Counted from the first letter of the stretch, positions 25,648-26,312 are shown. The stretch is DNA of 35,320 bases from a virus (IMGVR_UViG_2606217174_000009), one strand, 5' to 3'. Numbers and translations are program-made. Notes: a model not told the origin generated them from the sequence alone.

Positions 25648-25979
25648 GTTTTGCTGATGCGCCGTATCGTCGCTGTATTCCCTCATTAACAGAGACCGCA
25701 GCCCGACAGGGAGACTCCTCTGCGCGAGTGTGCGGGGATAATCAAAAACGATACACACCGGGGTTTACCGCGTTAACGGAGCGCGGCGTTGTCCCCTCAT
25801 AGTCGCCAGTCCGGTGCGATGGTGGAAGAAACAGGACGATGTGTTACCTCGCAAGCCCTGTTATGTCATGTGTCTGATTTGTGATTTAAGTCGGATAATT
25901 GTCGTTGCCATTAAGCAGAGGATTGATGACCGACAGGGCGGCATTGTTAGAATAAGACTTATTCTTATCTGTGCGGGGA

Positions 25980-26312
25980 ATGAAAATGAAAAGAAATCTT
26001 CCGTTAATTATTTTGTTGTCTTCTCTGGTTATGGGCTGTACGCAACATAAAACAGATATGCCCCGACAGTTGGTTAAGGCATTACCACAATATCCGGCCT
26101 ATGCAGCGGCAAATTATATAAAGGGACGGGTTGATGTGAGGTTTGATATTGGTGCTGATGGTACTGTCACCCGAATTGAGTTCATTCGTTCAGAGCCGCA
26201 CCATCTGTTTGATGAGCAGGTTGTAAAGGCGATGGCAAAATGGCGATTTGAGAAGGACAGGCCGTGTAAAGGCGTGAAGAAAACGTTTATCTTTAGTCCT
26301 TCTGCACCCTGA
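25980..26312 (+). CDS. Lipoprotein with TonB C-terminal-like domain
   Basis: Signal peptide with lipobox (LVMGC); C-terminal YPAYAAANYIKGRVDVRFDIGADGTVTRIEF...AMAKWRF resembles the TonB_C fold; 17-bp palindrome AGAATAAGACTTATTCT at 25949-25965 just upstream. Confidence 0.6.
   Translation: MKMKRNLPLIILLSSLVMGCTQHKTDMPRQLVKALPQYPAYAAANYIKGRVDVRFDIGADGTVTRIEFIRSEPHHLFDEQVVKAMAKWRFEKDRPCKGVKKTFIFSPSAP

Follow-up and report, generated by a model that had tools for sequence, protein, structure and literature searches.

In the complex of the Escherichia coli energy transducer TonB with FhuA, the β3 strand of TonB's C-terminal domain (CTD) pairs with the TonB box of the transporter (PMC11658791). 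According to the account given in PMC9841981, TonB C-terminal fragments that are exported to the periplasm inhibit transporter-dependent iron import (Howard, Herrmann, Stratilo & Braun 2001, PMID 11566987). Llp of phage T5 and Cor of phages phi80, N15, HK022 and T1 are small phage lipoproteins of the inner leaflet of the outer membrane (PMC11436027), which target FhuA from its periplasmic side, on a surface that overlaps that of TonB. The gene described here lies on the plus strand at positions 25986..26312 of the viral DNA stretch IMGVR_UViG_2606217174_000009 (35,320 nucleotides in full, hereafter the window). Its product resembles the engineered fragments, as far as PMC9841981 describes them, in being a TonB CTD that would reside in the periplasm without the energy-coupling part, and it resembles Llp and Cor in being a small phage lipoprotein predicted to face the periplasm from the outer membrane. 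The protein represents a novel architecture for a familiar domain. Its anatomy is most plausibly read as that of a protein that interferes with TonB-dependent receptors, and we give about an even chance to the proposal that it is a decoy of host TonB, competing with it at TonB-dependent transporters.

In the list of open reading frames (ORFs) of the window, the gene appears as a GTG-initiated ORF of the plus strand (25971..26312). RefSeq and phage records carry a 327-nt coding sequence (CDS) that starts at ATG 25986 and has a 108-residue product. A word-indexed search returned two types of this gene in E. coli, type A, to which the window's own copy belongs, and type B (represented by P0007), which are ~70% identical. 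ATG 25986 corresponds to the start codon used by the type B genes, and the GGGGA that precedes it has a counterpart in type B, an AGGA at equal spacing. The elements of the locus are as follows.

25986..26312, plus strand: CDS of the prophage lipoprotein with a TonB CTD (RefSeq 'TonB family protein'), 108 residues plus stop
25986..26039, plus strand: signal peptide, MKRN followed by LPLIILLSSLVM (hydrophobic run), with the lipobox LVMG-C; the Cys18 codon is 26037-26039
26061..26300, plus strand: TonB CTD, residues 26-105 (E. coli TonB 153-232), consisting of a short helix, β1, β2, a helix and β3
25974..25978, plus strand: Shine-Dalgarno-like GGGGA, 7 nt 5' of ATG 25986, by direct reading of the sequence
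25926..25953, plus strand: promoter-like site matching the consensus (ATGACC, 16 nt, TAGAAT, preceded by a TG that makes an extended -10), the -10 of which shares bases with the palindrome's left arm
25949..25965: perfect 8-1-8 palindrome of 17 bp, AGAATAAG-A-CTTATTCT

A preliminary description of this locus had proposed a prophage gene for a protein with a lipobox signal peptide and a TonB C-terminal-like domain. Both features are present, and the gene does reside in a lambdoid prophage. The lipobox, LVMG-C18 with Thr at position +2, satisfies the PROSITE-type pattern ([LVI][ASTVIM][GAS]C). Exhaustive searching with HMMER and then with a profile extended the family to Rahnella, Pantoea, Sodalis, Klebsiella and metagenomes; its members are proteins of 105-130 residues that share one plan, i.e. 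a signal peptide, a lipobox, a short linker and a TonB_C domain. The lipobox pattern is found in 26 of 30 family members (28 of 30, allowing for two mis-called N-termini), and its Cys is near-invariant (>90% of the family). The residue at +2 is Ser, Thr, Ala or Val, and Asp was never seen there in the 30 members. Asp at +2 is the signal for inner-membrane retention in Lol sorting. The protein should thus be a lipoprotein of the outer membrane, as predicted from these residues. A linker of only eight residues, TQHKTDMP, separates Cys18 from the domain.

The identity of the domain is supported by several profiles, so that the refuting outcome named in the preliminary description, a lack of TonB_C similarity in profile searches, did not occur. 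Pfam PF03544 (TonB_C) matches with E = 9.1e-15 (55.3 bits, cutoff 24.6), TIGR01352 matches with E = 7e-15 (55.1 bits, cutoff 27.1), and the E. coli TonB CTD (PDB id: 1u07) matches with E = 1.5e-15 in a gap-free alignment to TonB residues 153-231 with ~40% identity. The TonB equivalog models reach 49-74 bits against cutoffs of 265-448 and are matched only over their C-terminal ~80 positions. A first AlphaFold model, made with seven close sequences, was weak (pLDDT, the predicted local distance difference test score, of 64) and was superseded by a model from an alignment of 30 family members, which has a pLDDT of 85.9 overall and >95 over residues 25-105. Structure prediction, which the preliminary description had suggested as a check, thereby returned the TonB CTD fold. 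In Foldseek comparisons with the Protein Data Bank (PDB), the template modelling (TM) score is 0.88 for 1u07, 0.91 for BtuB-bound E. coli TonB (2gsk_B, root-mean-square deviation (rmsd) 1.1 Å) and 0.92 for FhuA-bound E. coli TonB (2grx_C, rmsd 1.1 Å), with rmsd values across the three in the range of 1.1-1.3 Å. The top fold matches are TonB CTDs only, and the whole PDB match list consists of TonB or TolA domains. A search of BFVD gave no match with E<0.1 and thus no structural relative.

The likeness to E. coli TonB (P02929) extends to individual residues. The YP motif (Y163/P164 of TonB) and F180, G186, F202, W213, Y215 and F230 of TonB correspond to Y36, P37, F53, G59, F75, W86, F88 and F103 of the phage protein, so that the motif and the aromatic cluster are kept, as is the β3 strand. 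The C-terminus of the protein is a hydrophilic β-strand plus SPSAP. What the phage-borne protein lacks is everything that precedes the CTD in TonB. There is no inner-membrane anchor at the N-terminus, which is occupied by a signal peptide predicted to be cleaved at Cys18, no region for coupling to ExbB/ExbD, and no proline-rich spacer to span the periplasm, since only eight residues lie between Cys18 and the domain. With neither a membrane anchor nor a proline-rich rod, energy transduction is not possible. The engineered TonB fragments, as described in PMC9841981, are also different: they are soluble laboratory constructs that include the proline-rich region, whereas the phage protein is natural, predicted to be lipid-anchored and tethered by eight residues.

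A truncated TonB in a prophage could be the dead remnant of a captured host tonB that persists by hitch-hiking, which is how its legacy annotation reads ('partial tonB-like membrane protein encoded within prophage CP-933N', of 2001-era). Some copies are truncated or frameshifted, and the prophage in the window is itself defective. The ratio of nonsynonymous to synonymous substitution rates (dN/dS) between type A and type B (the phage 21 homologue) is, however, 0.106 over the whole gene and 0.086 over the domain, at saturated synonymous sites, which points to strong purifying selection on the gene and not to a decaying tonB fragment. Furthermore, a signal peptide and a lipobox have been acquired and kept, the length is steady at ~108-116 residues, and the gene occupies one position across four genera at 35-49% identity. 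It is full-length in 414 of the 415 complete E. coli genomes with type A and in 1221 of the 1225 with type B. A remnant is therefore very improbable, and a decaying pseudogene was rejected on the dN/dS and the conserved lipobox.

The gene is common. Among 5426 complete E. coli genomes, 415 carry type A and 1225 carry type B, i.e. roughly 30% when both types are summed, which is an upper bound. Its carriers include O157:H7 strains, Stx1a phages, strain ATCC 25922 and the classic phage 21, and 191 viral contigs of IMG/VR contain a relative. A scan of species-representative genomes returned a single match, a 418-bp contig assigned to Modestobacter; the E. coli representative is without the gene, and hence the scan holds no taxonomic information. 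The contig in question (NZ_SJEX01000172.1, Modestobacter excelsi assembly) carries a type B-like copy and is probably an assembly contamination.

From the anatomy described above we infer the localisation, the TonB-box binding, the phenotype and the expression timing that make up the decoy model. The lipid anchor would hold the domain against the outer membrane's inner face, where TonB boxes emerge, on a linker of ~8 residues. Folded like the CTD of transporter-bound TonB, the domain would bind the TonB boxes of TonB-dependent transporters (FhuA, BtuB, FepA, CirA and others) by β-strand augmentation on its β3 edge. The TonB boxes carried by incoming group B colicins are possible extra targets, and in a variant of the model the decoy domain would pair with the CTD of host TonB. 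With no link to ExbB/ExbD and no inner-membrane anchor, such binding would be unproductive, and the lipoprotein would compete with real TonB and leave the transporters uncoupled. The lysogen, or the cell late in infection, would benefit from protection against T1- and phi80-like phages, group B colicins and TonB-dependent microcins, at the cost of less siderophore and B12 uptake. The study of exported TonB fragments from 2001 reportedly also saw reduced sensitivity to phi80 and colicin M. Irreversible adsorption of T1 requires TonB and energy (PMC11658791), and a TonB-box pentapeptide is described in PMC9841981 as lowering both infection by phi80 and killing by colicins (Tuckman & Osburne 1992).

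The genome of phage 21, which also has the type B lipoprotein, contains a complete sitABCD Fe/Mn ABC importer 3' of the tail fibre genes (OL657228.1, 21967-25416). The sitABCD uptake route is TonB-independent. Having no outer-membrane component, the importer is suggestive of a possible offset of the cost of a decoy, although the case is anecdotal. We put forward, tentatively, a more general form of the decoy model. Lambdoid prophages (in up to about 30% of E. coli strains, and in other Enterobacterales) may have captured the receptor-binding domain of TonB and retargeted it to the outer membrane as a general mimic, which would uncouple all TonB-dependent transporters and confer, by a single gene, receptor-independent immunity to TonB-dependent phages, group B colicins, microcins and sideromycins, with sitABCD offsetting the cost in phage 21-like prophages.

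Several observations weigh against the decoy. Residues with which TonB contacts transporters are not kept: Q160 is replaced by Leu in type A and Tyr in type B and varies elsewhere, R166 is replaced by Tyr, and R158 by Lys. The protein stops just past β3, without the last seven residues of TonB, and some copies (P0012, P0013, P0018) have C-terminal frameshifts. When iron is limiting, a general block of TonB would be costly, and it is not obvious that a lysogen would gain from constitutive expression. The gene is read in the direction of the late operon, so that late read-through expression is equally possible, and no terminator-like site was found between 25500 and 26800. The PADLOC models gave only a chance-level match (E = 0.038). 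The full-text literature searched contains no functional, binding or phenotype study of the lipoprotein. As for the substitution at Q160, Q160L is a classic TonB-box suppressor mutation (PMC11658791), and the variability of this position across the family precludes any inference from the Leu found here.

The same contact residues could be read in favour of a narrower function, in which the lipoprotein binds one transporter (e.g. the receptor of its own phage, or a signalling transporter such as FecA) or only the TonB boxes of colicins, resulting in narrow exclusion, immunity or altered signalling. Contact residues that differ both from TonB and between the types (Q160 to Leu or Tyr, R166 to Tyr) could tune specificity, Llp and Cor provide the precedent of receptor-specific lipoproteins, and a narrow effect would escape the fitness cost of a total block of iron uptake. 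On the other hand, TonB-box recognition occurs mainly by backbone β-augmentation and is naturally promiscuous (PMC11658791), and the sequence names no partner. Relatives of the C-terminus of the tail-tip protein J of phage 21 are lambdoid and Stx phages without receptor annotation, and thus give no clue to a TonB-dependent receptor. We regard a specific modulator as rather unlikely, while noting that sequence alone cannot separate it from a general decoy. Llp and Cor themselves differ from the TonB-like lipoprotein in being FhuA-specific and allosteric, whereas the latter would use the generic TonB box; a scan of PHROG profiles gave only phrog_1267, 34172, 812 and 5155 and thus no Cor or Llp family, and the BFVD fold search likewise showed no relationship to them. 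The possibility of a known defence system was rejected, there being no PADLOC model for the lipoprotein.

The surroundings of the gene bear on its function as well. The window contains a lambdoid prophage, truncated in its small terminase gene, and, beyond it, a Mu/e14-like tail module, with the following features.

1-1287, minus strand: integrase
Lambdoid prophage: RecE-like exonuclease
5912-6685, minus strand: CI-like repressor
9320-12691, plus strand: YobI-like P-loop NTPase of 1123 residues (PF20693, E = 7e-123), in the early region
14554-15657, plus strand: protein with a helix-turn-helix (HTH) and Peptidase_M78 (IrrE-like), 3' of the YobI-like NTPase
Lambdoid prophage: a DUF968 gene and a DNA methylase gene
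20414-22396, plus strand: SASA/DUF6645 protein with DUF1737, 5' of the lysis genes
24004-24537: lysozyme
25096-25647, plus strand: Rz i-spanin (Pfam Phage_lysis, E = 1e-49)
25400-25585, plus strand: Rz1 inside Rz, a 61-residue ORF with a lipobox
26444..26644, minus strand: YlcI/YnfO (DUF3950) gene, convergent with the TonB-like gene
26686..27051, plus strand: HNH endonuclease
About 27341-27497: truncated small terminase subunit, 3' of the HNH endonuclease
27616-35320, minus strand: Mu/e14-like tail module (Mom, SASA/DUF6645 fibre protein, tail-fibre assembly protein, gp48, baseplate J)
29861-31915, minus strand: second SASA carbohydrate-esterase/DUF6645 protein, a paralogue of that at 20414-22396, in the tail module

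The YobI-like NTPase and the HTH/Peptidase_M78 protein look like defence or abortive-infection cargo. Similarity to other prophages ends at ~27497, within the small terminase gene, and the boundary between the lambdoid prophage and the Mu/e14-like module (~27341-27620) is the junction of a chimeric or tandem prophage. Most of the length of the right-hand part of the window is matched by only ~21 complete E. coli genomes.

The order of lysis cassette, TonB-like gene and terminase on the strand of the late operon is found in phage JLK-2012, and the gene occupies the same slot in Lys8385Vzw, four Stx1a phages, ev017, Perceval and PhiR47_2. In phage 21, a type B gene lies between lysis and terminase and carries the expert annotation 'TonB C-terminal domain protein'. 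Homologues in a Klebsiella phage (41% identity) and in Rahnella and Sodalis prophages (35-49% identity) also reside in the lysis/terminase slot, so that in prophages of E. coli and of these three genera the position is always this one; the neighbourhood of a Pantoea agglomerans copy is non-phage. For most of the related lambdoid and Stx phages the match to the query is confined to its first 137 bases, which precede the gene, and the gene is present in only seven of the 138 matching phage records. Since these phages share the preceding sequence but are without the gene, it behaves as optional cargo. The designation of the gene as a moron in the preliminary description therefore stands in part: it is dispensable and has a conserved promoter-like extended -10, but no terminator follows it in the window.

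The slot also holds cargo that is not involved in lysis, the bor/iss genes. Bor/Iss and the TonB-like protein are alike as small outer-membrane lipoprotein cargo of the slot between Rz and cos/terminase, and their genes are ~480 bp apart in phage 21 and ATCC 25922; they differ in that Bor/Iss is unrelated in sequence, encoded on the opposite strand and functions in serum resistance. In E. coli ATCC 25922 (NZ_CP009072.1, 19227-20327), the type B gene is located 480 bp from the virulence marker iss, the bor homologue, on the opposite strand, and the lambda-like prophage of this strain also has an ompC-like porin gene and sieB.

The position of the gene, directly 3' of the lysis cassette and on a common strand with it, would also suit an envelope or lysis accessory, in which the anchored domain binds peptidoglycan or another periplasmic partner and tunes the tethering of the outer membrane to the wall, lysis timing or envelope robustness. 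A LysM-like affinity for peptidoglycan has been proposed for the TonB C-terminus. The protein matches PHROG 1267, which is labelled 'Rz-like spanin', at E = 1e-42. The lysis cassette is, however, complete without the TonB-like gene, as an Rz/Rz1 pair is present in the window, and phage 21 has a complete pair as well. The likeness to Rz1-type o-spanins is limited to that of small outer-membrane lipoproteins encoded beside lysis genes; the TonB-like protein is neither paired with nor encoded inside an i-spanin gene, and has a globular TonB fold where o-spanins are proline-rich extended peptides. Nor does it have the C-terminal transmembrane segment of a u-spanin, and the expert annotation of phage 21 goes no further than the domain name. 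A role in lysis or in the envelope thus appears quite improbable, and the identity as a spanin was rejected on anatomy. The label of PHROG 1267 is most likely positional, given the TonB fold, the separate Rz/Rz1 and the presence of bor/iss in the slot. As a probable mis-annotation, it will spread to phage genome annotations.

The preliminary description had placed a 17-bp palindrome about 15 bp upstream of the start. It occupies exactly 25949-25965, and its end lies 5 nt ahead of the GTG, 14 nt ahead of ATG 25980 and 20 nt ahead of ATG 25986, which makes the stated distance a fair one. The chance expectation of a match to this palindrome within three mismatches is 0.08 per window. Perfect palindromes in which each arm has 8 bp or more are nevertheless enriched across the window, which contains 13 of them (about 9-10 distinct) vs 2.2 in shuffled sequences, a ~4-5x excess, and the palindrome at 25949-25965 is therefore real but not unique. 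Examples of the others are the following.

1821-1838, 12129-12146, 15109-15126, 23366-23384, 27144-27161 and 185-202: other perfect palindromes of this kind, e.g. GACAGGGGATCCCCTGTC, AATAACAGGCCTGTTATT, TAAAGTTACGGTAACTTTA and CAGTTAACATGTTAACTG

The promoter-like site that overlaps the left arm is plausible as a promoter of the TonB-like gene. The block ATTGTyAGAATAAGAC, which comprises the left arm and TGnTAGAAT, is common to types A and B, with flanks that have diverged. The number of promoter-like sites around the gene is not above that in shuffled sequences. The Sodalis homologue has a promoter-like site and, directly after the gene, a terminator-like site. The right arm of the palindrome resides within an insertion of 13 nt that is peculiar to type A and absent from type B. 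The palindrome is thus not conserved across the family, and it could be an operator specific to type A. Two other blocks upstream of the gene are conserved between the types amid diverged surroundings. One, at ~25808-25833 (CCGGTGCGATGGTGGAAGAAACAGGA), is the start of a small ORF (MVEETG...), the length of which is 21 vs 46 residues between phages; the other is AGTCrGATAAT at 25890-25899.

An operator for an environment-responsive regulator, such as Fur, was considered in particular, because the palindrome is perfectly symmetrical and overlaps the promoter-like -10, and because a 13/19 match to the Fur consensus (25951-25969) covers this -10 and the predicted transcript start. By its match to the 19-bp consensus the site ranks in the top 0.03% of positions in the window, and a type A sublineage of 87% identity has kept the palindrome intact while the adjacent bases have diverged. 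Still, ~0.17 Fur matches of equal quality are expected by chance per 300-bp upstream region, there is no such site in type B, Klebsiella or other homologues, and type B is without the right arm altogether. Of 67 viral type A loci, 62 have an intact palindrome and the other five have a C-to-T change in its right arm. The window contains no second copy of the site: there is no further site with three or fewer mismatches and no other AGAATAAG half-site, and a weak match at 26366-26380 is at chance level. An operator of this kind is unlikely; a Fur box, its match being within chance for a 300-bp region and absent in other homologues, is retained only as a low-confidence alternative. An RNA element at the palindrome was also rejected, as the energy of the hairpin equals that of shuffled sequences (z=-0.28) and Rfam gave no match at E<=1.

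In the full-text literature searched, no paper was found that describes the protein as a lipoprotein, and the gene is not reported in the papers on O157 expression and proteomes in which CP-933N is mentioned. The labels that it carries, 'TonB family protein' and 'Rz-like spanin', both mislead. The gene is very common and clearly selected, and the decoy idea, as yet unproven, is a natural extension of known biology. If true, it would be a new route to a known outcome, the exclusion of phages and colicins at TonB-dependent transporters, by mimicry of the host energy transducer, beside the receptor-specific Cor and Llp. In its more general form it would define a new class of exclusion and lysogenic-conversion factor. 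The lipoprotein would also be a natural compact inhibitor with which to study the interaction of TonB with its transporters, which is pursued as an antibiotic target (PMC9841981). A common prophage gene would then alter the sensitivity of its host to TonB-dependent phages, which would be relevant to phage therapy and typing, as T1-like phages are abundant coliphages. It would likewise change sensitivity to siderophore-conjugated antibiotics that enter by TonB-dependent transporters and to the colicins and microcins that shape competition in the gut, as well as the acquisition of iron and vitamin B12.

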